Below are positions 1 to 26,585 of a stretch of DNA of 42,451 bases, piece after piece. The DNA is from Bacteroidales bacterium. Lineage in GTDB: Bacteria > Bacteroidota > Bacteroidia > Bacteroidales > JAGOPY01. Every line of letters begins with the position of its first letter. Position 1 is the stretch's first letter. The stretch covers positions 1 to 42,451 of the forward strand of contig DAOWEV010000111.1 in assembly GCA_030638325.1 (NCBI GenBank), written 5' to 3'. The translations under genes were made by a program, and so were the position numbers. Under the pieces are notes generated by a model, which saw only the letters and a list, made by a program, of their open reading frames with translations, searched no databases and had not been told where the DNA came from.

Positions 1-2195
1 CAGCCAACATCCGGCAGGATATCAGCAATGGGGTGACTTTTGGGAATTACACGGCCCATTGTAACCCTACCGGATGGGGTAATCCTTCATTTAATACAGG
101 CCATATTCCTCAACTACAAAACCAGGATAAATATGGCCTTCTCGTTGGGAACTGTTGCTCATCGAGTGAATTCCAGCAAAACGAATGTTTCGCCGAAGCA
201 TTGTTAAGGGCAGAAGGGAAAGGAGCCGTTGGATATATCGGGGCTTCCAACAGCACATTCTGGGATCCGGATTATTACTGGGGTGTCGGCGTAGGCCAGA
301 TCTCCGGCACACCTCCGCCGTACGAAGAAACTACTTTGGGGGCCTACGACCGTGCCTTTCATTCTCATGGAGAACCCTTTGAGAGCTGGTGTACTACCCA
401 GATGCAGATGATATATGCCGGAAATCTTGCCGTAACGGAAGGAGACCCCAGTTCAGCGGAGTATTACTGGGAAGCCTATTGCCTTATGGGTGATCCGAGC
501 CTCATGATCTATTTCTCGGAACCCCCGGCCTTAACGGCCACTTATGATCCTTTACTGCCACTTGGCAGCTCAAGCCTTACGGTCACTACAGAGCCTTATG
601 CATACGTTGCTCTTTCCATGGACGGGATTTGTTATGGAACCGGCCTGGCAGGCGCCGATGGTGTGGCACAGCTAAGCCTGCAACCTATATCCCAACCCGG
701 TACTGCCGACATTGTAGCTACGTGCCAGAATTTTCAGCCGTTTACGGGAACCATATTGGTAGCCAACCCGGAAGGGCCTTATATAATGCTTAACGATTTT
801 ATGATCAACGATGACGCAGGCAACAATAATGGCCTGGCAGATTATGGAGAAGATATTTTATTAGACGTGGAACTTAAGAACTGGGGCAACTCTGATGCTC
901 CCAACGTGAGGGCTACCCTGAGCGCTGAAGATGAGTTTATCATCATTTCGGATGATTACCAGGAATGGGGTACTATCCTGGCCCAGGACTCATCGCTTCA
1001 GACAGATGCCTACCTTTTTACGGTAGATGACTCAATACCGGATCAACACATTGTTTATTTTACCCTTGATATTGAAGATGATACACGGGAAACATGGAGT
1101 TCTGATTTTACTGTCATTCTGAATGCACCCCTGCTTCTCGCTGGCAGTCTTGCCATTGATGATTCCCAGAGTGGAAATAACAATGGCAGGATGGATCCCG
1201 GAGAAAATGTCGATATTATTATCGGAGTTATCAACAACGGCCATAGCGATGCTTTCAATGTCGTTGCTAACTTATACACCGGCAGTACTGATATAACCAT
1301 CCATAATTCAACTGTAGAATATGATACGCTTGAAATGCTTACTGCCGATCAGGCTATATTCAACGTTACCGTTGGTGAAGACGTGGAGATCGGCACGGTG
1401 ATCGAACTGAATTTTACCCTGACTTCAGGCCCCTATTATGTTGAGAAAGATTTTGCACCCGTTGTAGGTCTTATCGTGGAAGATTTTGAGACCGGCGACT
1501 TTACTGCTTTCAACTGGCTATTTGGTGGAGAGCTACCCTGGCAGATCGTTGACAACGAGGCTTATGAAGGCAATTGCGCGGCAAGATCAGGAGCCATCAC
1601 AGACGAGCAAACATCTGAAATATATATCGATCTGACTGTCCTGGCCGACGACAGCATCAGCTTCTTTAAAAAAGTATCATGCGAACCTGACCCTCCGAAC
1701 ATGAATTATGATTACCTCGCTTTCTTTATCGATGGTGTTGAGCAGGAACGCTGGGATGGGGAGCTTGGATGGAGCCGGAATGCTTACCCGGTAACTGCCG
1801 GCGATCATACATTTACATGGCTTTATAGCAAGGATTATTCTGTAAGCAACGGGGAAGATTGTGCCTGGATAGATTACATTGTTTTCCCGGCAATAGCTGA
1901 CCCTGTTTCTGTTGCAGAGCAGAATAAATTAACCGGCCTGGCCCTCCGGGTCTACCCTAACCCGGCCAAAAACAAGATCAATTTTGTGGCACGCTTACCT
2001 GAAACATGCATTGTATCCCTAACCATCCTTGACCTCATGGGCCGGCAGGTAAAACAAGTTGTGAATATGCAGGAATGGCAGGCAGGTATGCATGAAATCC
2101 AACTGGAGATACCGGAACTGAATAATGGCATTTATTACTGTATATTTACTGCTGGTGATCAGAAGATGGCTGAGAAGCTGATCATCTCAAAATAA
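1..2195 (+). CDS. Peptidase C25 (gingipain-like) family protein, 5' end outside window, with T9SS C-terminal sorting domain
   Basis: The frame is open from nt 3 (ANIRQDISNGVTFGNYTAHC...), so the GTG at 33 is not the true start. Catalytic-region motifs NYTAHC and VGNCCSS are present. Two tandem beta-sandwich modules carry the GNNNGxxDxGE motif. The last ~80 aa (VYPNPAKNKINF...GIYYCIF...KLIISK) look like a Por/T9SS CTD. Confidence 0.8.
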   Translation, partial: ANIRQDISNGVTFGNYTAHCNPTGWGNPSFNTGHIPQLQNQDKYGLLVGNCCSSSEFQQNECFAEALLRAEGKGAVGYIGASNSTFWDPDYYWGVGVGQISGTPPPYEETTLGAYDRAFHSHGEPFESWCTTQMQMIYAGNLAVTEGDPSSAEYYWEAYCLMGDPSLMIYFSEPPALTATYDPLLPLGSSSLTVTTEPYAYVALSMDGICYGTGLAGADGVAQLSLQPISQPGTADIVATCQNFQPFTGTILVANPEGPYIMLNDFMINDDAGNNNGLADYGEDILLDVELKNWGNSDAPNVRATLSAEDEFIIISDDYQEWGTILAQDSSLQTDAYLFTVDDSIPDQHIVYFTLDIEDDTRETWSSDFTVILNAPLLLAGSLAIDDSQSGNNNGRMDPGENVDIIIGVINNGHSDAFNVVANLYTGSTDITIHNSTVEYDTLEMLTADQAIFNVTVGEDVEIGTVIELNFTLTSGPYYVEKDFAPVVGLIVEDFETGDFTAFNWLFGGELPWQIVDNEAYEGNCAARSGAITDEQTSEIYIDLTVLADDSISFFKKVSCEPDPPNMNYDYLAFFIDGVEQERWDGELGWSRNAYPVTAGDHTFTWLYSKDYSVSNGEDCAWIDYIVFPAIADPVSVAEQNKLTGLALRVYPNPAKNKINFVARLPETCIVSLTILDLMGRQVKQVVNMQEWQAGMHEIQLEIPELNNGIYYCIFTAGDQKMAEKLIISK

Positions 2196-2222
2196 ATTAT
2201 TTAAATAAATATTCTTTGAGCT

Positions 2223-5200
2223 ATGAAAAAACTGTTTTTAACTATTGTATTTGTTTTCTTTTTGAGGGTGATCTTCGCAGATCCCGGGTGTGATGTACAG
2301 TACAATGAACCACGTGAAGGTGTTTATGAGCTGACTTTTGAGATCGGAGATTTTCAATTGAAAAAAACCACCCTTGACGCACTTACTTTTACAAAGATAC
2401 TTTTCGAGAGTGGTGTTACCACTAAATTAAAGGGCTATGCCGAGCTGCCTTTTGTGCATGCATCGGTGATGATCGATCCGGTTAAAAATGTGAATATCGT
2501 TATCACTCCCGGAGAATATGAAGATTTCGTGCTGGAGAACCCGTGTGTTCCTTCAAGGGGCGTGATCTACCGTGATACAGACCCGGCAACCGTACCTTAT
2601 GTGATCGATCCTAATTCCATCACTGATAAATGGTACCCTGCAAATATTGTAGAGCAAACGGCCCCTTTCATCCTGAAAGATATCCGGGGAACAAATGTTT
2701 ATGTTTACCCGTTTCAGTATAATGCAAAGGATCAGATATTGAGGGTTTATAAAACAATAAAGGTAGAACTGATCGAGAACAATACCACCCCTGTTAATCC
2801 AATGCCTTATGAGGTTAATACTGTTTTGCGGGAGATGGATGCTATTTACCGTTCGATTTTTATCAATTATGGTATTGACGGTTCGAGGTATGATCTGACG
2901 GTAGGACAATACGGAGACATCCTGGTGGTCACCACTGCGCGTGATGAAGCGGCCATTCAACCCTATATTGACTGGAAAACGGAAAAGGGTTACAATATAC
3001 AGCTGGAGGTGGTCGCTCCCGGCACTATTGTGAACAGCATGGTGCAGACGGCTTATGATAACAATAATGACCTTTTGTATGTGCAGTTGGTAGGCGACTG
3101 GAACGACATTAAGTGTAATACTTTAGGCTCATCTCCTATGGACCCGCAGGTTGGATGCGTTGTCGGAGGCGATGACTACGCGGATATATGTGTCGGCAGG
3201 ATATCTGCAGAATCACCGGCAGATGTTACTGTTCAGGTGGACAAGTTCATCAATTATGAAAAGAACCCGCAGGCCGGCGCTGCCTGGTATGCAACTGCTA
3301 CAGGCATAGCTTCAAACCAGGGTCCCGGTGACGACAATGAAATAGACTATGCACACAATGATACGATATTCAGTAATAAACTGGATCCGTTTTCATTCGA
3401 TACTTATAATCCGATCTATGATCCCGGTGCTAGCACTCCCGATGTATTTGCAGCCGTAAATAACGGCACGAGTGTCATCAATTACACCGGGCATGGATCG
3501 CCCCAGAGTTGGGGTACATCGGGTTTCAGCAATTCCAATGTGGCATCTCTTACCAATGGTGCTATGCTGCCATGGATCGTTTCGGTGGCTTGCAATAATG
3601 GGGATTTCCATACCGGCACCTGTTTCTCGGAGTCCTGGCTCAGGCAAAGCAACGGGGGTGCTGTGGCCATGATGGGAGCATCAATAGGCCAGCCATGGGA
3701 TCCTCCTATGCGCGGACAGGATTACTTTATGGATATGATCATCGGCGGATATGATTATGCTGCACATAGCACACAAAACGGGATCAGTAGCACCGAGGGA
3801 AGAACCACCCTGGGAGCTGCCATCTTCAATGGATTGACAATGATGACCACGGAATCGGGGACAAACTCTGACTGGGAGACAGCCAAGACCTGGAACCTTT
3901 TTGGAGATCCGTCGCTGCAGGTCCGGACTGCTGCACCGGAAGCGCTCACACTTACCAGCAACCTTGTGATGGCTGGCATTCCGTTTACTACAACAGTGAC
4001 CACTGCAAACGGTCCCGTTGAAGGCGCCATGGTGGCGCTTAGCCAGGATGGAATGATGTTCAGTGGTGTTACCGATATTTCAGGATCAGTAACTATCAAC
4101 CAGACACTGGACCAGGGCACGGCTTTATTGGTGGTGACGGCATTCAACACTGAAACCATTTATGAAGATGTGATAGTGGTTCCTCCGGATGGGCCTTACG
4201 TGCTTTTTGATACGCTCGAGATCAATGATATGAATGGCAATAATAACGGCTTGCTGGACTATGGTGAAACGGTTTTCCTTACGGTAACCCTGACCAATGT
4301 CGGCAATGATGATGCAATAGATGTCACGGCCGTGATCTCATCAGCAGACCTGTATGTAACGGTTATCGACAGTACGGCAGATTTCGGCCTTATCCCGGCA
4401 AACAGCAGCGTAACGGTTCAGGATGCTTTTGAAATTGAAGCTGCCGACAGTATTCCGGATAATCACAGTGTATTCTTTACGCTGGATGCCACCGGGTCGG
4501 GTGATGATATCTGGTCTTCCGGCTTTGTTATCCAGGCACAAGCCCCGGTACTCGAATATGTATCCTTTGAGATTGACGATTCTTCATCAGGAAATGGCAA
4601 TGGAAGGCTTGATCCGGGAGAGACAGCAGATCTGATCATCGATGTTTGCAACACAGGATCATCAGAGGCATATAATGTAACCGGAGGCCTATCCACTACA
4701 AGCAGTTTTATCACTATTAATACTGCATCTCAGAATATGGGAAACCTAATGGGTGGTGATACCACCTCACAGGCCTATAATATTACGGTGGATGAAGCCA
4801 CCCCGGCCGGTCACCTGACAGAGTTTATGATCGATATTACGGCTGATCTGAACATCGGCACCCAGGGTGAATTCTCAGCCGTGGTTGGACAAATACCTGT
4901 GTTGGTTGTGGATCTTGATGGTAATAACAATTCAGCCCCGTCTATCCTGACTTGTCTTGAGAACCTGTCTGTCGGGTCTGAAAACTATGATGCTTTCCCG
5001 GAAAACCTTGACCTGTTTACATCGGTCTTTGTTTGTCTGGGGATATATTCCGATAATCATATACTCACGGGGGCAGAAGGACAAAAACTGGCTGACTACC
5101 TTAACAACGGCGGCAATCTTTATATGGAAGGCGGGGATACCTGGTATTATGACCAGCAGTATACACCTACTCCGGTGCACCCCATGTTCAGCATCAATGC

Positions 5201-5798
5201 CTTAGCTGATGGGGCTGATGACCTCAGTTCGATTTTGGGCGAGGCGGGTTCAATAGTGGAAGATATGACATTTACTTATTCCGGAGATAACAGCTACATA
5301 GATCATATTGAACCAGAAGGCAACGCATCACTGATGTTCAAAAACATGAACCCGGAATACGGTTGTGTAGTGTCTTATGATGAAGGGGAATACAAAACCA
5401 TTGGTTCATCATTTGAATTTGGCGGCCTTGATGATTTTGACTACACAAAAGATGATTATATGATCGCCATCCTGGATTTCTTTGGGATAGAAGGCGTCTG
5501 GACAGATGTTGATGAAGCTGTTACGGCAGAGATATTAACTGTTAGTTATCCGAATCCATTTTCTGCTGTTACAAGCATTCACTTTCAGCTTCAGGAGCGT
5601 TCAAGGACAGTTATCGAGATCTTTAATATAAACGGCCAGAAGGTAATAACTTTATCAGACATGGAACGGGATGCCGGTAATTATGAGGTAAAGTGGAATG
5701 GTACCAATGAGTCAGGACATAAAGTTGCAGACGGAATTTACTTCTATCACCTGCGTGCCGGAGGACAAGTGGTTTCCGGGAAGATAATCAAGATGTAA
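2223..5798 (+). CDS. Peptidase C25 (gingipain-like) cysteine protease, full length, with T9SS C-terminal sorting domain
   Basis: ATG start followed by a signal peptide (MKKLFLTIVFVFFL). There is an N-terminal C25 propeptide-like region. The catalytic His motif is INYTGHGSPQSWG and the Cys motif is VSVACNNGDF. It has the same two GNNNG/GNGNG..D.GE modules as the upstream paralogue. The C-terminus SYPNPFS...DGIYFYHL...GKIIKM is a T9SS CTD. Confidence 0.85.
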   Translation: MKKLFLTIVFVFFLRVIFADPGCDVQYNEPREGVYELTFEIGDFQLKKTTLDALTFTKILFESGVTTKLKGYAELPFVHASVMIDPVKNVNIVITPGEYEDFVLENPCVPSRGVIYRDTDPATVPYVIDPNSITDKWYPANIVEQTAPFILKDIRGTNVYVYPFQYNAKDQILRVYKTIKVELIENNTTPVNPMPYEVNTVLREMDAIYRSIFINYGIDGSRYDLTVGQYGDILVVTTARDEAAIQPYIDWKTEKGYNIQLEVVAPGTIVNSMVQTAYDNNNDLLYVQLVGDWNDIKCNTLGSSPMDPQVGCVVGGDDYADICVGRISAESPADVTVQVDKFINYEKNPQAGAAWYATATGIASNQGPGDDNEIDYAHNDTIFSNKLDPFSFDTYNPIYDPGASTPDVFAAVNNGTSVINYTGHGSPQSWGTSGFSNSNVASLTNGAMLPWIVSVACNNGDFHTGTCFSESWLRQSNGGAVAMMGASIGQPWDPPMRGQDYFMDMIIGGYDYAAHSTQNGISSTEGRTTLGAAIFNGLTMMTTESGTNSDWETAKTWNLFGDPSLQVRTAAPEALTLTSNLVMAGIPFTTTVTTANGPVEGAMVALSQDGMMFSGVTDISGSVTINQTLDQGTALLVVTAFNTETIYEDVIVVPPDGPYVLFDTLEINDMNGNNNGLLDYGETVFLTVTLTNVGNDDAIDVTAVISSADLYVTVIDSTADFGLIPANSSVTVQDAFEIEAADSIPDNHSVFFTLDATGSGDDIWSSGFVIQAQAPVLEYVSFEIDDSSSGNGNGRLDPGETADLIIDVCNTGSSEAYNVTGGLSTTSSFITINTASQNMGNLMGGDTTSQAYNITVDEATPAGHLTEFMIDITADLNIGTQGEFSAVVGQIPVLVVDLDGNNNSAPSILTCLENLSVGSENYDAFPENLDLFTSVFVCLGIYSDNHILTGAEGQKLADYLNNGGNLYMEGGDTWYYDQQYTPTPVHPMFSINALADGADDLSSILGEAGSIVEDMTFTYSGDNSYIDHIEPEGNASLMFKNMNPEYGCVVSYDEGEYKTIGSSFEFGGLDDFDYTKDDYMIAILDFFGIEGVWTDVDEAVTAEILTVSYPNPFSAVTSIHFQLQERSRTVIEIFNINGQKVITLSDMERDAGNYEVKWNGTNESGHKVADGIYFYHLRAGGQVVSGKIIKM

Positions 5799-17969: not shown

Positions 17970-18932
17970 TCAGGTCTTTTTATTTTTACGAGAATTATCA
18001 GCTTCCATTTTCCGCAGGCGATACTGGTTTTCTTCCATGATCTTACGGTTGACAGATATCAGGTCGGCAAGAACACCGAGAAAGATGAAAAAAACGCCGG
18101 TCAATAATAAAATGGATGTCAGGATCAGGCTCGGCAGCCTTGTCCTTTCAGCTCCCATGATCAGGTATATGAGCCATCTCAGGCCCAGTAGAAAACCTGC
18201 TCCCATGGAAATACTTGAAAGGATAAAGAAAAAGTTAAACGGTTTATAGGCTATGAAGATCCTGATGATTGTCAGCAGTGAAAGCTTGATATACCTGGGG
18301 ATACTTTTTACAAGCTTTGATGGGCGCAGGTCATCATTAACCCTTATGGGCACCGAGGCGATGGCCATATTTTTCCTTCCGGCCTGGATTATGGTTTCGA
18401 GCGTATAGGTATAATCGTTAAATACGTTCAATCGCATGGCTGCATCCCTGGAGATGGCCCTGAATCCGCTGGGAGCGTCCGGAATATCTGTATTGCTGGC
18501 CTTGCGTACAACCCAGCTACCCAATTTTTGCATCATCTTCTTCATCAACGAGAAATGCTTGATCTGGCTGATAGGCCTTTCCCCGATCACCAGGTCGGCC
18601 TGACCGGCCAGGATAGGTGCGGTAAGTTTTGGAATATCATCAGCATTGTACTGATCATCGGCGTCGGTATTGACAATTACATCGGCCCCATTATTAATAC
18701 AGGCATCCAGTCCTGCCATGAACACCTTGGCCAGCCCCTGGTTCCTTGTAAAAGAAACAATATGGTCAACACCGTTTTGTTTGGCTATCTCCACCGAATT
18801 ATCCGTACTCCCATCATCAATGATCAACCACTCGACCGTGTCAAATCCTTCAACTTTGCGGGGTAAGGCACTCAGGGCTACGGCAAGCGTTTCAGCCTCG
18901 TTATAACAAGGCATCTGTATAATGAGTTTCAT
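17970..18932 (-). CDS. GtrB/ArnC/DPM-synthase-like GT2 polyprenyl-phosphate glycosyltransferase
   Basis: Motifs are IIQMPCYNE, LIIDDGSTDNS and NTDADDQY (DxD). Two C-terminal TM helices (FFFILSSISMGAGFLLGL and LILTSILLLTGVFFIFLGVLADLI) match GtrB architecture, and the length is 320 aa. Confidence 0.8.
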   Translation of the reverse strand: MKLIIQMPCYNEAETLAVALSALPRKVEGFDTVEWLIIDDGSTDNSVEIAKQNGVDHIVSFTRNQGLAKVFMAGLDACINNGADVIVNTDADDQYNADDIPKLTAPILAGQADLVIGERPISQIKHFSLMKKMMQKLGSWVVRKASNTDIPDAPSGFRAISRDAAMRLNVFNDYTYTLETIIQAGRKNMAIASVPIRVNDDLRPSKLVKSIPRYIKLSLLTIIRIFIAYKPFNFFFILSSISMGAGFLLGLRWLIYLIMGAERTRLPSLILTSILLLTGVFFIFLGVLADLISVNRKIMEENQYRLRKMEADNSRKNKKT

Positions 18933-19002
18933 CTACACTTCTCTTTTCTGTAAATATCCGGAATCATTTTTTATCCTGCAAATATACGGATTATCATTCT
19001 TT

Positions 19003-20397
19003 CTATTCAGGCTTAATAAAATGTGGTTTTATTAAGGCTTCGACTCTTTTAATAATGTATATGAGGATGATCAGGGCGATAAAAACAATAACCCAGGTTA
19101 CCCGTGCCTGCAACCGGTCTGAGATATTTGCGAGGCTTGCAGTTATAGCAGAGTTGTATAAAATACCGAAGAAAGTTATGACTATGAACGCTTTCAGGCT
19201 CTTGTTCAATTTATTATTATAACATGCCCAAAAAATTATGATAACAGACATGCTCAGCACAAAATAGTTAATGATATTCAGGAACTTAAAGTCCAATTTC
19301 CCCCAACTTTGCAGTGTGACAAGCATTTCAACAGATTCATTACCAAAATATTTGTCAATTGGAGGATACGGAGCCGAATTCTGTCTAAAAGCTAAGAGGC
19401 CAGACCCGATATCAACGTTAAAAAGCTGCCTGAAAGTTGCTTTAATGCTTTCCCAAACAAACCTTCCCAAATATTCAGGAGTAGTATAAATACCATGAAT
19501 AACCTCAGCAAAGGCTGAATCTGCTTCTTCCCAACTGATCCCGGCTTTTTTCATGGGGGAACTCTCAGTCCATAAAAACCCGCCAGCTGAAGTTGGCAGG
19601 GTTTCAAGCTGATCACATAAAATATTAGGTTCCTGTTCACAATGTTCTTCAAGATAGTCGTGCAGGATACCTGTTTCAGATAACCTCCCCGCTAAAAAGA
19701 CATTTGATGTCAGGCTAAGCCGGAAACCTTTATTGTAGTATGCATGATGAGACATTATGATAATAGATGATCCAATGATCATTAGTAAAAGCCAGACAAG
19801 CCTGCGGTAGAATACTTTCCCGCTGACGAAATAGTTAACCCGCAATACATGGAATATGAATATGGTCGCGAGAATGAGAATGGCTAAGGGGAAATGGCTG
19901 AAATGAGAAACTATAAAAAAGAAAAAAAGTATGGAGAATAAGATCCCTTCCCAAACGGGTATTTTTTTCTCAGAAAAAAGAATAAATATTATCAAGAAAA
20001 TACCGGAGGTAAAAATATCCGGCATAATCTGACAACTATACCAGCTAAGACTACTTAAAAGTATTAAGACCACGATGATTGCGAAATGTATGAAATATAG
20101 CCTCACCTGCGGAAATATCAGTTTAAGTACCTTATATATAAGCAAATTAATGATTAAACATTGCATAAACATGACTGTCCATAATGTAGCATGCAATGAA
20201 AAGATGTTTATAAACAACCCGTAACCTATTGGCCTGGATGAGGGTGGAGTAAGTAAAAATGCTGAATGGATATAAGTTCCTGTGTCAGAAAACAACAAAG
20301 GGTAACCATTATTGAGTGCCGGTGCGCAAATAATTAGAGTAGTAAGCAGGAAATAAAGTGCTGTAATCAGATACTTCACTGTTCTGGAATATTTCAT
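19003..20397 (-). CDS. Polytopic membrane protein, putative GT-C-type glycosyltransferase
   Basis: About 10 or more hydrophobic segments. The first loop contains an acidic residue (LFSDTGTYIHS). A ~150-aa hydrophilic loop lies before the last TM helices. It sits directly upstream of the GtrB-like gene. Confidence 0.5.
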   Translation of the reverse strand: MKYSRTVKYLITALYFLLTTLIICAPALNNGYPLLFSDTGTYIHSAFLLTPPSSRPIGYGLFINIFSLHATLWTVMFMQCLIINLLIYKVLKLIFPQVRLYFIHFAIIVVLILLSSLSWYSCQIMPDIFTSGIFLIIFILFSEKKIPVWEGILFSILFFFFIVSHFSHFPLAILILATIFIFHVLRVNYFVSGKVFYRRLVWLLLMIIGSSIIIMSHHAYYNKGFRLSLTSNVFLAGRLSETGILHDYLEEHCEQEPNILCDQLETLPTSAGGFLWTESSPMKKAGISWEEADSAFAEVIHGIYTTPEYLGRFVWESIKATFRQLFNVDIGSGLLAFRQNSAPYPPIDKYFGNESVEMLVTLQSWGKLDFKFLNIINYFVLSMSVIIIFWACYNNKLNKSLKAFIVITFFGILYNSAITASLANISDRLQARVTWVIVFIALIILIYIIKRVEALIKPHFIKPE

Positions 20398-20429
20398 GTT
20401 TTCGATGCTTTTCCGGGCTGATATTGACG

Positions 20430-20454
20430 TTAATTAGTGTTTGTCCATAATGTC
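20430..20454. repeat. Left 25-bp inverted repeat of the 452-bp intergenic element
   Basis: TTAATTAGTGTTTGTCCATAATGTC is the exact reverse complement of 20857-20881. Confidence 0.95.
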
Positions 20455-20494
20455 CGATTTCTTCGTTACGCTTGTCTTTAAACTCAGTCATTTA

Positions 20495-20502
20495 CAAAAG
20501 TA
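20495..20502 (-). promoter_or_regulatory. -7 box TACTTTTG inside the IR-bounded segment, pointing at the 19003..20397 gene
   Basis: The + strand reads CAAAAGTA, about 98 nt upstream of the ATG at 20397. Confidence 0.4.
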
Positions 20503-20560
20503 AACTCCTGATTTTAAAGACGTCGCAAGCCTCGAACTCAAACATTCTGAACCAAACACT

Positions 20561-20602
20561 GACTTTATGGATGGACACTAATTAGTGTCTGTCTATAAGC
20601 TC
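20561..20602. repeat. Central back-to-back copy of the inverted repeat
   Basis: 20561-20585 matches the right IR at 20/25 positions. 20578-20602 matches the left IR at 20/25. The two copies overlap on the perfect 16-bp palindrome GACACTAATTAGTGTC (20574-20589). Confidence 0.85.
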
Positions 20603-20616
20603 TAAATTGTTGATAT

Positions 20617-20624
20617 CAAAAGTA
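20617..20624 (-). promoter_or_regulatory. Second TACTTTTG -7 box in the larger IR-bounded segment
   Basis: The + strand reads CAAAAGTA, in the same orientation as the first box. Confidence 0.3.
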
Positions 20625-20856
20625 TTTAAAAAGATAAAGATAAAAAAAGCCTTTGTACTTTTAAGCAATAGTTCGGTATTTTTTTAATATTAACAAATGT
20701 AAATAGAAAACTTTAACGAACTATTGAATAGCAGATCATCAATAATATATGATTTTTTTATGTCAAAATATTACGGTACTCCTGGCAAAAATTGCGACAG
20801 GAAAAATTTTAGTGGGTCAGGAGTTCTGAATTTATGAAATTCTCTTTCTTTTTGAT

Positions 20857-20881
20857 GACATTATGGACAAACACTAATTAA
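20857..20881. repeat. Right 25-bp inverted repeat of the 452-bp intergenic element
   Basis: GACATTATGGACAAACACTAATTAA is the exact reverse complement of 20430-20454. It ends 21 nt after the stop codon of the upstream gene. Confidence 0.95.
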
Positions 20882-20902: not shown

Positions 20903-22792
20903 TCAATAGTAAGGTACAGCCTTGCTCAAGGATATTATACCGCCATCGATCATATAGGATTTCGAATTCTTATTCCATACGTAAATTTTTAGCCTATGTG
21001 CATTTTCCGGTATATGTGTCAGGAGACAACCATGAAAATTATTTATTAGCTTATTCCAGCAGGCATGCTTTTTCCTTTGGTCTATTGGCTCGTAAAGAAT
21101 CAGTTGTTCTTGCTCATCCCTTAGCTCAATCCCGATATTTGCGATGAAAGGTTCGCCAAGAACAGAAAGATCAATATCTATATAAATATTTTGTCCCACT
21201 AAAGTATCAACAGTCTCATTGAAACATACAAAGCCCTTCCTGCTGATATAACCCGGTGTCTGTATGGAATCTTTAGCTGTGATTAAAGATCTGTGAAGCG
21301 GCTCTTTACGTTTTAACAGTGAAATATTAATAGCCTCATCGGTTTCAATGATATCATAATATTGGAGCCACTCAGGGTTCACGTTGACAAACCCAATTTG
21401 ATAATCAGTCAAATTCCCCGGATAGTCAAATGTTTGCATATGATTTAAAGAATCACAGTTACGAAATTTGATATAGTTCCATGTTTTTGCCTGCAAACCA
21501 GAGCCTGCCACAGTAGGAGGCGGGTTCTCTTGATTCCATGTTGATTTGATCAAATGGTAAAAGCGTTCAGGCATTGTCGCGTACTTGCGGTGGTATGAAT
21601 ACTCTAAGTTCATATTGAATGCAAAATGAACGGGTATCAATAACAATGCGAGAGATAGAATTTTTATCACCCTGGTATTTATCACATTCTGAAACATATT
21701 TAACATGAAAATGATGCTTCCAAAAAACAGGGGAAAAAAGTATATAGCTGTTCTTTCCCGGGGATAGTAAATCCCGAATAGACCCTTCAGAACAAAAATG
21801 GCAATAAGGTTCCCGATAAAAAGGTAAAAAAACGTAAAGTTGCTGTCAGTTAAGATATTTAAGGATTTCTTTTTGATAAGAAAATAGATCCAGACACTAC
21901 AGATGATAATAAAATACACGATAAATAAGACCTTCACAAACAGGTAATTATGATCTGTTAGAATAACTGTCAATGATCTCACTGTAGAATCCCAGAAACT
22001 TTTATCTGATCCGAAAATGAGGTTTTTCTTTCTTAGCTCAAATAAATACACTGTGAGAAATGCCAGCGGGATAATGCTCAGGAAAAGCACTATCCCAATA
22101 AATTTGCAGAGGTCAGCACGGGTGAAATGCCTGGCATGAATGAACTTGATAATGGCAAGACCCAGGATGATCAATGAGGTAACCATAAGTGTCAGATTAG
22201 CGCTCAATGCCAGCGTGGTGAAGACAAAACAGTATGTATAATGGTTGTATTTGTTGGTTTGCTGAGCCATCATCAAATGGTATATTCCGGCTATCATCAA
22301 CGCGATTGACATACCATATCCCCGGCAAAAGGTAAAATATTCGAGAATGCTATGTACTGTACATATGGAAAGAATGAAGACCCACCGGAGAAATTTGTCA
22401 GGAATGTGTCGTGAGATTTTGTAGGTATAGATTAGAAATAAGATTGCTGATAGCACATTAGGCAATCTTAAAGCGATTTTTGATGACCCCAGCAAAAGAT
22501 AACTGACATAAGTAAGTGCAGAATTAAGGATATGATTATTTGTGTCAAAGCGTGATAAAAAAGGAAGGAATTCTCCTGATTGAACATAGAAATGTAAGGT
22601 GGATATCTCATCCATTATAACAGGAACAAATAGGGCTCTCAAAACCAGGTATAAAAATAGAAAGGATGAAAGGATGATAAAAATTTGTTTTTCGCTAACC
22701 TTTGAAAAAGATACTCTGGTAAAGAGATCCCTGATCATACTCTGTTTCGTTTTAACCAAGCCTGGGTAATTTTTAGTTCGCCCCCCTGTCAA
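20903..22792 (-). CDS. Polytopic membrane protein, GT-C (ArnT/PMT-like) putative glycosyltransferase with ~230-aa C-terminal soluble domain
   Basis: Many TM segments. The first loop carries an acidic motif (PVIMDEISTLHFY). The TTG at 22792 is the ORF-track start, but the ATG at 22738 (MIRDLF...) is equally plausible. Confidence 0.55.
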   Translation of the reverse strand: MTGGRTKNYPGLVKTKQSMIRDLFTRVSFSKVSEKQIFIILSSFLFLYLVLRALFVPVIMDEISTLHFYVQSGEFLPFLSRFDTNNHILNSALTYVSYLLLGSSKIALRLPNVLSAILFLIYTYKISRHIPDKFLRWVFILSICTVHSILEYFTFCRGYGMSIALMIAGIYHLMMAQQTNKYNHYTYCFVFTTLALSANLTLMVTSLIILGLAIIKFIHARHFTRADLCKFIGIVLFLSIIPLAFLTVYLFELRKKNLIFGSDKSFWDSTVRSLTVILTDHNYLFVKVLFIVYFIIICSVWIYFLIKKKSLNILTDSNFTFFYLFIGNLIAIFVLKGLFGIYYPRERTAIYFFPLFFGSIIFMLNMFQNVINTRVIKILSLALLLIPVHFAFNMNLEYSYHRKYATMPERFYHLIKSTWNQENPPPTVAGSGLQAKTWNYIKFRNCDSLNHMQTFDYPGNLTDYQIGFVNVNPEWLQYYDIIETDEAINISLLKRKEPLHRSLITAKDSIQTPGYISRKGFVCFNETVDTLVGQNIYIDIDLSVLGEPFIANIGIELRDEQEQLILYEPIDQRKKHACWNKLINNFHGCLLTHIPENAHRLKIYVWNKNSKSYMIDGGIISLSKAVPYY

Positions 22793-24317: not shown

Positions 24318-26585
24318 TCAGAAATCATCCAGGTCATAATCAATTTTACTCTCCTGCCGTTCCTGCTCATACTTTTCACAATCGATTTCCACAGACAATG
24401 GCTGTAAAGGTTTTTCAAAATCACCCTGGCTGATATGCAGGGAAGGATCCTTATAAATTTTTTGCATGTAGAGCGCCCATATTGGCAGGGCCATATTGGC
24501 TCCCTGGCCAAGCCCAATGGTCCGGAAGTGGACACTCCGGTCTTCGGCACCAACCCATATACCTGTTGAAAGGTCGGGTGTGATCCCGATAAACCATCCG
24601 TCGGACTGGTTCTGTGTGGTGCCGGTTTTACCGGCGATGGGCTGGGTAAAACCATATTTGAATCTAAGCCGGATCCCGGTACCTGACCGCACCACCCCTT
24701 TCATCAGATCCAGCATCAGGTAAGCAGTTTCCTCACTCATAGCTTCCTGTTTCCGGGGAACAAAACGTTCTATAATATTTCCGAATTTGTCTTCTATCCT
24801 CATCACAAGTATGGGCTCAATATAAACACCTTTATTGGCAAAGGAGTTGAAAGCGCCCATCATTTCGTATAAGGAAATATCTGAAGATCCCAATGCAATA
24901 GCCGGAACGGGATCAAGGTCTGCTTCAACGCCCATCTTCCGGGCAATTTTAATGACTGACTGGGGGGAATACCGTTTGATCAAAAAAGCCGAAATCCAGT
25001 TGTTGGAATTGGCCAGCGCCCATTGCAGGGTAACTTCTTCGCCGATCCGCTTGCTGGATGAGTTCCTGGGAGACCAGATATCACCTGTGGGAAGATCGAC
25101 ACTGTACTGAACATTGGCAACTTTCGAACAGGGTGAAAACTCCCCTTCCTGCATGGCCAGGGTATATAAAAATGGTTTGAAAGTAGAACCCACCTGCCTT
25201 CTGCTGAGCTTTACATGATCGTACTTGAAGTGACGGTAATCAATGCCCCCGACATAAGCTTTCACGTGCCCCGTATATGGTTCCATCGACAAAAGACCTG
25301 CCTGCAGGAAAAACTTGTAATAACGGATTGAATCCATGGGTGTCATAACAGTGTCGATCTCCCCTTCCCACGAAAACACCTTCATCGGTACGGGCGTATT
25401 GAAAACGATCCGGATGGAATCCATCGACATACCACGGAGTTTTAACACCCGGTAACGTTCCGACCATGTTATAGTGAGTTCCATGACCTTTTCTATCTGC
25501 TTTTCAGCAACATCTTTCTCAAACACGAAAGGGGCATTGGTAAACCCTTCCCAGTGTTCGTAAAATGCCGGCTGAAGGTCTTCTTTCAAATGCTGTACTA
25601 CGGCTTCTTCAGCATATTGTTGCATACGGGAGTCGATGGTGGTGTAAATCTTCAGTCCGTCTTTGTAAAGATCGTATGGGGTTCCGTCTGATTTAATATG
25701 GTTCTGACACCATTCCCTGAGCTCCATCCTGAGGATCTCACGGAAATAAGTTGCCGGTCCGGAAATATGATCCCTGACCCCGTAGTTTGACAGATCGATA
25801 GGCAACTGGCTCACAGAATCAAAAACCTCCGGAGTGATAAAATCATAATTTGCCATCTGGGTCAGCACCAGGTTTCTTCGCGCTATAGATCTTTCGGGGT
25901 TGCGAACGGGGCTATACCAGGTAGGCCCTCTGATGAGACTCACCAACAGGGCAGATTCTTCCAGGTTCAACGAGTCAACGGTCTTATTGAAGAAAGTTTT
26001 TGCCGCCGCTTTTATACCATATGAATGGCTGCCGAAAGGAACTGTATTCAAGTACATGGCGATGATCTCCTGCTTGGAATAATTACGTTCCAGCTTTATG
26101 GCGGTAACCCATTCTTTGAATTTTCGCATCACCAGGTCCAGGGTTGTCAGATTCTCTCCCCTTGGGAAGAGGTTTTTAGCTAACTGCTGAGTTAAAGTGC
26201 TGCCTCCTCCTTTGTGATTCCCGGTAAGCACACCATAAGCAACCCTAAACAGGGCCTTGCTGTCAACGCCCGAATGTTTCTCAAAGCGGATATCCTCTAT
26301 GGCGAGAAGAGCTTGCATAAGCTGATCGGGCAGATCACGATACTGAATATTGGACCGGTTTTCTATGTAATAAGTACCCAGTAGTTTTCCATCGGAAGAA
26401 TAGATTTCTGAAGCCAGGTTGGTTTTCGGGTTTTCCAGTTCTTCAAAAGAAGGCATCGGGCCAAACCATTCATTGGCAACGGCGACAAAAAACAGGGCGA
26501 CAAGCAGGATAAAACTGATGAAAAATATCCAGAACTTAATTAGATAATTGAAAATCCTCTTTTTCTTTTTTTTCTCTTCTGACAT
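24318..26585 (-). CDS. mrcA: Class A penicillin-binding protein 1A (GT51 transglycosylase / transpeptidase)
   Basis: GT51 motifs are EDIRFEKHSGVD and GGSTLTQQLAKN. Transpeptidase motifs are STFKP, SNN and KTGTT. I prefer the ATG at 26585 to the TTG at 26594. Confidence 0.92.
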   Translation of the reverse strand: MSEEKKKKKRIFNYLIKFWIFFISFILLVALFFVAVANEWFGPMPSFEELENPKTNLASEIYSSDGKLLGTYYIENRSNIQYRDLPDQLMQALLAIEDIRFEKHSGVDSKALFRVAYGVLTGNHKGGGSTLTQQLAKNLFPRGENLTTLDLVMRKFKEWVTAIKLERNYSKQEIIAMYLNTVPFGSHSYGIKAAAKTFFNKTVDSLNLEESALLVSLIRGPTWYSPVRNPERSIARRNLVLTQMANYDFITPEVFDSVSQLPIDLSNYGVRDHISGPATYFREILRMELREWCQNHIKSDGTPYDLYKDGLKIYTTIDSRMQQYAEEAVVQHLKEDLQPAFYEHWEGFTNAPFVFEKDVAEKQIEKVMELTITWSERYRVLKLRGMSMDSIRIVFNTPVPMKVFSWEGEIDTVMTPMDSIRYYKFFLQAGLLSMEPYTGHVKAYVGGIDYRHFKYDHVKLSRRQVGSTFKPFLYTLAMQEGEFSPCSKVANVQYSVDLPTGDIWSPRNSSSKRIGEEVTLQWALANSNNWISAFLIKRYSPQSVIKIARKMGVEADLDPVPAIALGSSDISLYEMMGAFNSFANKGVYIEPILVMRIEDKFGNIIERFVPRKQEAMSEETAYLMLDLMKGVVRSGTGIRLRFKYGFTQPIAGKTGTTQNQSDGWFIGITPDLSTGIWVGAEDRSVHFRTIGLGQGANMALPIWALYMQKIYKDPSLHISQGDFEKPLQPLSVEIDCEKYEQERQESKIDYDLDDF

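Follow-up and report, generated by a model that had tools for sequence, protein, structure and literature searches.

Two MITEs very probably form the inverted-repeat element upstream of a Bacteroidales GT2 operon

The spacer between two co-directional genes of a Bacteroidales genome contains a 452-bp element with perfect inverted repeats (IRs) at its ends, and the question is whether this element is a promoter switch, turned by inversion, or a product of transposition. The window, that is, the whole stretch of DNA analysed, is 42,451 nucleotides long. A sequence-only reading of the window had left the choice between an inverton and a MITE; the MITE part of this proposal is upheld by dispersed copies, target-site duplications (TSDs) and an ISNCY-family partner, while the inverton part has gained no support. 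The 452-bp element can be described, with high confidence, as two abutting MITEs belonging to a large family mobilised in trans by ISNCY-family DDE transposases.

Layout of the element and its surroundings

The right repeat (IR-R, 20857-20881) is the exact reverse complement of the left repeat (IR-L, 20430-20454) over 25 bp, and the match can be extended to 28 nt at 96%. At up to three mismatches, only these two copies of the repeat occur in the window, and none was obtained in 100 shuffles. The interior contains an R-like copy (20561-20585) and an L-like copy (20578-20602), each matching at 20 of 25 positions and both fused on the 16-bp palindrome GACACTAATTAGTGTC (20574-20589). The IR-bounded segments are 106 and 254 bp long; the distance from the element to the stop codon of the upstream gene (TGA, 20903-20905) is 21 nt and that to the ATG at 20397 is 32 nt. 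In all these points (the perfect repeats, the fused internal copies, the palindrome, the segment lengths and the distances to the genes), the sequence-only reading agrees with the sequence.

It is more natural to parse the region as two elements, each with 18-bp TIRs, separated by three TAATTA hexamers (Table 1). One grammar is common to all four repeat copies, namely TAATTA followed by GTGT nnn TCCATAA nGTC. In the ‘perfect 25-bp IR’, the far end of unit 2 is paired with the left end of unit 1. The 24-mer TAATTAGTGTTTGTCCATAATGTC, the third commonest end variant (24 of 126 sampled), is present at both outer ends, and the additional matching T is the commonest flanking base; the repeat is perfect because one common variant is found, by coincidence, in both outer TIRs.

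Table 1. Features of the 452-bp element and the adjoining genes, in window coordinates
Feature	Position	Strand	Remarks
Downstream gene	19003-20397	-	464-aa membrane protein, no family; first of a GT2/flippase-like/large-membrane-protein module
TAATTA, copy 1	20431-20436		target-site duplication, outer flank of unit 1; homology of 33 copies ends here
MITE unit 1	20437-20578	+	142 bp, non-coding, long imperfect hairpin; 33 full-length relatives, fold energy
Unit 1, L-type TIR	20437-20454		GTGTTTGTCCATAATGTC
TAnnTTTG box TACTTTTG	20495-20502	-	in AAAA loop of the unit-1 apical hairpin
Unit 1, R-type TIR	20561-20578		reverse complement GTGTCCATCCATAAAGTC
TAATTA common to both elements	20579-20584		centre of the 16-bp palindrome; 15 comparable junctions elsewhere
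Unit 2	20585-20874	-	290 bp, TIR-bounded, unique AT-rich interior; TIR matches
Unit 2, first TIR	20585-20602		GTGTCTGTCTATAAGCTC, slightly degenerate
TAnnTTTG box TACTTTTG	20617-20624	-	in unit 2
TAnnTTTG box TACATTTG	20694-20701	-	in unit 2; missed by the sequence-only reading
Unit 2, second TIR	20857-20874		reverse complement of GTGTTTGTCCATAATGTC
TAATTA, third copy	20875-20880		outer flank of unit 2
Upstream gene	20903-22738	-	611 aa, no family, co-directional

The other gene content of the window, which includes T9SS C-terminal sorting domains, GldH and C25 peptidases, indicates Bacteroidota. At 33-5798 on the plus strand, two neighbouring genes encode gingipain-like C25 peptidases with T9SS C-terminal sorting domains, the first of them being cut by the edge of the window. 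In related species (L126, L127 and L128), the 611-aa gene is absent, and a 483-aa gene directly precedes the homologue of the 464-aa gene, at a distance of 93-344 bp; relatives at 56-67% have neither the 611-aa gene nor the elements. The contig of the relative at 91% begins within the gene. No empty site of this locus was found among the fetched loci, and other samples yielded neither an empty site nor another orientation. The only close relative of the operon is a scaffold from another sample with 94% identity (L125 1-1582, corresponding to 18814-20148 and 25653-25866 of the window), in which position 18814 in the GT2 gene is joined directly to position 25866 in the PBP1a gene; this junction represents either a chimeric scaffold or a real rearrangement.

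Dispersed copies, target-site duplication and an autonomous partner

The end motif TAATTAGTGTNNNTCCATAANGTC, comprising 20 specified bases, was searched for in one genome per GTDB species (596 Gb). In these representative genomes, TAATTA-GTGTyTGTCCATAAwGTC is present at at least 120 loci, against about one expected by chance according to the authors' own estimate. The loci belong mostly to Bacteroidales or Lentimicrobiaceae MAGs, with several copies per MAG; among the matches listed, the motif is also found in Ignavibacteria, Chlorobiota, Nitrospira, Desulfobulbia, Treponema, Marinimicrobia and Marinilabilia salmonicolor. Many of the listed matches lie within a few tens of bases of contig ends, as expected, because repeats break assemblies. 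Among the loci listed, inverted pairs of the motif bound elements that cluster at 153-155 bp, other elements ranging from 85 to 358 bp. A search of viral contigs returned zero matches.

The segment 20431-20584 of the window aligns end to end with 33 copies of about 154 bp in other genomes, at 67-95% identity. These relatives of unit 1 occupy unrelated intergenic sites, and the homology stops exactly at TAATTA on both sides. The copy with 95% identity (L040 90-243) comes from another MAG. At one locus (L021), two copies flank housekeeping genes encoding PhoH, a nitroreductase and a Mur-ligase-family protein; this position beside ordinary housekeeping genes therefore indicates independent intergenic insertions. 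The remaining 42 kb of the window contain no further copy. Many dispersed copies with target-site duplications, the finding by which the earlier reading had proposed to recognise a MITE, are thus present.

A second set of copies was collected from metagenome contigs by means of the interior core GTCATTTAC-N4-GTAAACTCC, with the ends left unconstrained. Directly outside both TIRs, identical hexamers are found in 19 of the 36 copies collected in this way that have recognisable TIRs, and nine more copies have hexamers differing at one base. Most of the identical pairs (15 of 19) are non-palindromic direct repeats, namely TAAATA, TATTTA, TAACTA, TATCTA and TAGATA; among the 36 copies, no pair of hexamers matches only as inverted repeats. 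Without the flanking hexamers, relatives are typically 141-143 bp long, with 18-bp TIRs, and the family duplicates a 6-bp TAnnTA target. At other loci, 15 back-to-back junctions have exactly one common TAATTA and none has two, as would result if a later element inserted into the TAATTA that an earlier one had regenerated; three TAATTA copies for two elements, as in the window, fit two successive insertions. At 26 of 159 element ends (L005-L124), a flanking ORF of 100 codons or more ends with a stop codon inside the terminal TAATTAG (TAA in 19 cases, TAG in seven). The TAATTA used for insertion is therefore often one in which a gene ends.

The autonomous partner of the family is represented by a 2016-bp element in an Ignavibacteria MAG (L009 513-2528) and a 1693-bp element in a Lentimicrobiaceae MAG (L013 215-1907), both with the same TIRs and TAATTA flanks as the window element. 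Each contains a single ORF, encoding proteins of 443 and 450 aa, respectively, which are 62% identical. Both proteins possess a DDE_Tnp_1 domain (PF01609) and score 379.1 and 355.6 bits, respectively, with the NCBIfam model NF033593 ‘ISNCY family transposase’ (cutoff 325). The nearest named relatives, ISNCY-like ISRm17 and ISRtr6 of rhizobia, are only about 35% identical. The L009 element is inserted in an IS30-family transposase gene, the flanks of which are found at L009 11-532 and 2529-2700. The IS30 ORF rebuilt with one TAATTA has the best score (228.8 bits), compared with 211.5 bits with none and 221.5 bits with both; the single TAATTA restores the motif NKLIRQYIPK.

As with other MITEs of DDE insertion sequences, the elements are short and non-coding and have TIRs identical to those of the IS, a TSD of fixed length and many intergenic copies. 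Here, only the ends are common to IS and MITE, the interior of the MITE being unrelated to that of the IS. The units of the window have the size of MITEs (142 and 290 bp), lack transposase coding capacity and combine TIRs, a target-site duplication, dispersed copies and ends in common with an autonomous element.

The interior of unit 2 is AT-rich and single-copy in the source sample, since Logan contig L004 runs through the whole of it, and no homologue of this interior was found in about 125 fetched loci. The length of unit 2 falls inside the range of 85-358 bp seen for TIR-bounded elements elsewhere. Unit 2 may represent a rare MITE or, alternatively, native DNA caught between TIRs.

In the proposed mechanism, the transposase would recognise a TIR of about 18 bp (GTGTyTGTCCATAAwGTC), insert at TAnnTA, here TAATTA, and duplicate 6 bp. 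The first element would have inserted into a TAATTA of the 61-nt spacer that separated the two co-directional genes, and the second into either of the two resulting TAATTA copies, apparently in this order. Such events would leave three TAATTA copies, a back-to-back TIR junction, seen as the 16-bp palindrome, and two outer TIRs. The elements are now probably passive passengers, either carried in a longer operon transcript or supplying fortuitous promoters, and seem not to invert at a meaningful rate.

Orientation of the element in the source sample

Invertible promoters of Bacteroides are controlled by the recombinases Mpi or Tsr. The locus shares with them short IRs around a few hundred base pairs upstream of a surface-glycan locus and oriented TAnnTTTG boxes inside the segment, in a Bacteroidota genome. 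By analogy, a recombinase encoded elsewhere would flip the 402-bp region, or the 106- or 254-bp segment, and thereby couple or uncouple the minus-strand promoters and the glycosylation operon. The perfect 25-bp inverted repeats flanking the region, the three TAnnTTTG boxes, all directed toward the operon with none opposite, and segment sizes like those of Bacteroides invertible promoters speak for this mechanism, which is nevertheless very improbable, the repeats being transposon ends, with TSDs, that are found in many phyla. Pfam scans of ORFs of at least 140 aa revealed no recombinase or transposase gene in the 42-kb window, in accordance with the earlier statement that a recombinase is absent.

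According to exact-protein look-ups, the locus is present in the source sample only. The ENA scaffold of this sample has the window orientation throughout. In the k=31 Logan assembly (SRR13892601), contig L004 leads from the upstream gene across IR-R, then the 254-bp segment, then the palindrome, and ends at 20560, and contig L002 starts at 20459 and continues into the operon. The assembly has no branch at IR-R, which L004 crosses unbroken. Only the window orientation is thus seen in the two assemblies, at the level of assembly, where a rare inversion between the two identical 24-bp TIRs could escape. Among the fetched loci, there are only two same-locus pairs, and the orientation is identical in both.

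Contig breaks beside the 106-bp segment were considered as a sign of inversion and rejected. The k=31 graph was simulated for the window alone, for an additional copy of unit 1 and for inversion models comprising the whole region, the 106-bp or the 254-bp segment, with the crossover placed either at the inner edges or within TAATTA. No break arises from the window alone. Every inversion model places the breaks at other coordinates, which are not those seen, and the models that involve IR-R also break at IR-R. With an additional unit-1 copy flanked by T and GTGTC, i.e., abutting another TIR, unitigs end exactly at 20459 and start exactly at 20560. Only this simulation reproduces the observed breaks; they are therefore explained by a second copy of unit 1, which the source sample probably contains, and not by inversion.

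The properties of the elements themselves also argue against a switch. Little would change on inversion of unit 1, because it is nearly self-complementary. Related copies are frequently found between convergent genes or behind stop codons, positions in which a promoter switch would be senseless, and, unlike Bacteroides invertons, the copies related to unit 1 are not located preferentially upstream of genes.

Perfect IRs upstream of a Bacteroidota surface-glycan operon can therefore mimic an inverton, being transposon ends in this case. Scans for phase-variable promoters that use IR geometry only would repeatedly catch this MITE family, because hundreds of its copies are present in Bacteroidales and other phyla. 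The main value of the finding, which is real but ordinary, is the definition of a false-positive class for inverton scans. The family also fragments metagenome assemblies and is often located on stop codons and in operon spacers.

Promoter boxes, hairpin core and related elements

The first two minus-strand TAnnTTTG boxes of Table 1 were correctly noted in the sequence-only reading, as was the absence of such a box on the plus strand inside the element; the third box was overlooked. The further claim that the element carries the promoter of the operon is unproven: the boxes are present, and the enrichment of box-bearing copies upstream of gene starts was not replicated. As a tentative possibility, the MITEs may have been co-opted, with the boxes at 20495, 20617 and 20694 serving as the promoter of the 464-aa/GT2 operon or with the hairpin, in a 5' or intercistronic position, modulating the stability of the mRNA or read-through. 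Such co-option would be an extension of the description as two MITEs and does not compete with it.

Only 32 box-free nucleotides are left between unit 1 and the ATG, boxes elsewhere in the window are located 15-50 nt upstream of start codons, and for several related copies the distance to a start codon is 9-33 nt, all of which is consistent with co-option. In the first 29 copies, those bearing a box were more often upstream of gene starts (7 of 9 versus 5 of 20, p = 0.014); in an independent metagenome set of 75 copies, the effect was gone (3 of 13 versus 23 of 62). The idea of a mobile promoter, based on the association in the 29 copies, was dropped after this failure. The unit-1 box is one loop variant of the apical hairpin: it reads as the reverse complement of the AAAA loop together with the stem, and it is restricted to one sub-lineage. 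Furthermore, the spacer without both units and two TAATTA copies is 61 nt long and contains no TAnnTTTG box. Before the insertions, the 464-aa/GT2 module therefore probably shared a transcript with the upstream genes, and it may still do so, which weighs against a promoter role of the MITEs.

The 75 classified metagenome copies occupy 53 co-directional, 16 convergent and 6 divergent spacers. In the 53 co-directional spacers, 33 copies are sense and 20 antisense with respect to transcription, a bias that is not significant (p = 0.10). A separate box, TATATTTG (18979-18986, minus strand), is located 47 nt upstream of the start of the GT2 gene (18932), in the 70-nt spacer following the 464-aa gene; the GT2 and flippase-like genes may thus have an internal promoter that is independent of the MITE region.

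Unit 1 is predicted to fold with an energy of -57.8 kcal/mol (z = -7.3). The central hairpin of the unit-1 copies has 77 double-change (compensatory) cells, compared with 29.7 in shuffles, and controls with a shifted register are lower. The element has no Rfam match at the gathering score and only noise at E<=5. A 60-aa ORF (20309-20491, minus strand), the only one to touch the two units, which runs from an ATG beside the apical hairpin through the TIR into the start of the 464-aa gene, is probably spurious; a coding role was rejected because indels break the frame between MITE copies.

The core GCGTTAC..GTCATTTAC-N4-GTAAACTCC..GCCTTG (window 20465-20545) recurs in hairpin elements with completely different outer arms. 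Its occurrences are found in L130-L189, for example, at L131 427-448, L152 5652-5673 and L132 696-717; the arms around it are of the types TCCATAA, GCAAGAAAAC, GAGACCATTGCATAATACGGCA and GGTGTGTCATAATTGCAAAC. It is conceivable, though rather unlikely, that the asymmetric apical core is a functional module, either a site for a host or accessory factor or a hairpin for mobilisation as ssDNA or RNA, which would define a cross-phylum MITE superfamily that swaps ends to exploit different transposases. In a lesser variant, the 450-bp block as a whole would be able, owing to its identical outer TIRs, to move or now and then to invert as a promoter-carrying composite.

The earlier suggestion that the palindromic cores are operators of a dimeric regulator is very improbable, since the perfect 16-bp palindrome is fully explained by two TIRs abutting one TSD, an arrangement with 15 instances elsewhere. 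A related proposal is that the hairpin is a REPIN/RAYT-type or structured-RNA element. The conserved apical core with its compensatory changes, common to elements with quite different arms, would suit such a role; TSDs and a DDE IS partner argue against Y1/RAYT mobilisation, and the Rfam result and the non-significant strand bias argue against a structured RNA, so operators and elements of this kind hardly come into question.

REPIN/RAYT systems resemble the MITE family in that their repeats, about 100-150 bp long, are intergenic, form hairpins and are often situated in spacers of convergent or co-directional genes. REPINs lack a TSD and depend on RAYT genes of the Y1 (IS200-like) type, whereas 6-bp TSDs and a DDE partner are found here; the window element has neither of the two REPIN/RAYT hallmarks, i.e., the lack of a TSD and a Y1 transposase. 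The Correia elements of Neisseria are about 100-155 bp long, with TIRs of about 26 bp; they duplicate an AT-rich palindromic target and form intergenic mRNA hairpins, and some copies create promoters. They are not known outside Neisseria, nor is a transposase known for them. The window element resembles Correia elements in behaviour and is not one of them: Correia elements duplicate TA, whereas the family described here duplicates 6 bp (TAnnTA), is spread over several phyla and has a candidate ISNCY partner. In the accessible literature, searched with sequence strings and with keywords, neither this TIR nor the TAnnTA target was found to be described, and the family, with its strict TAnnTA target, 6-bp duplication, candidate ISNCY partner and conserved hairpin core, appears to be undescribed.

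At one further locus (L019, about 1-146), a minisatellite (GGAGTACTT, at least six repeats) is located immediately inside a TIR of this family. It recalls the minisatellite-bearing MITE reported for Porphyromonas gingivalis (PMC4596501).
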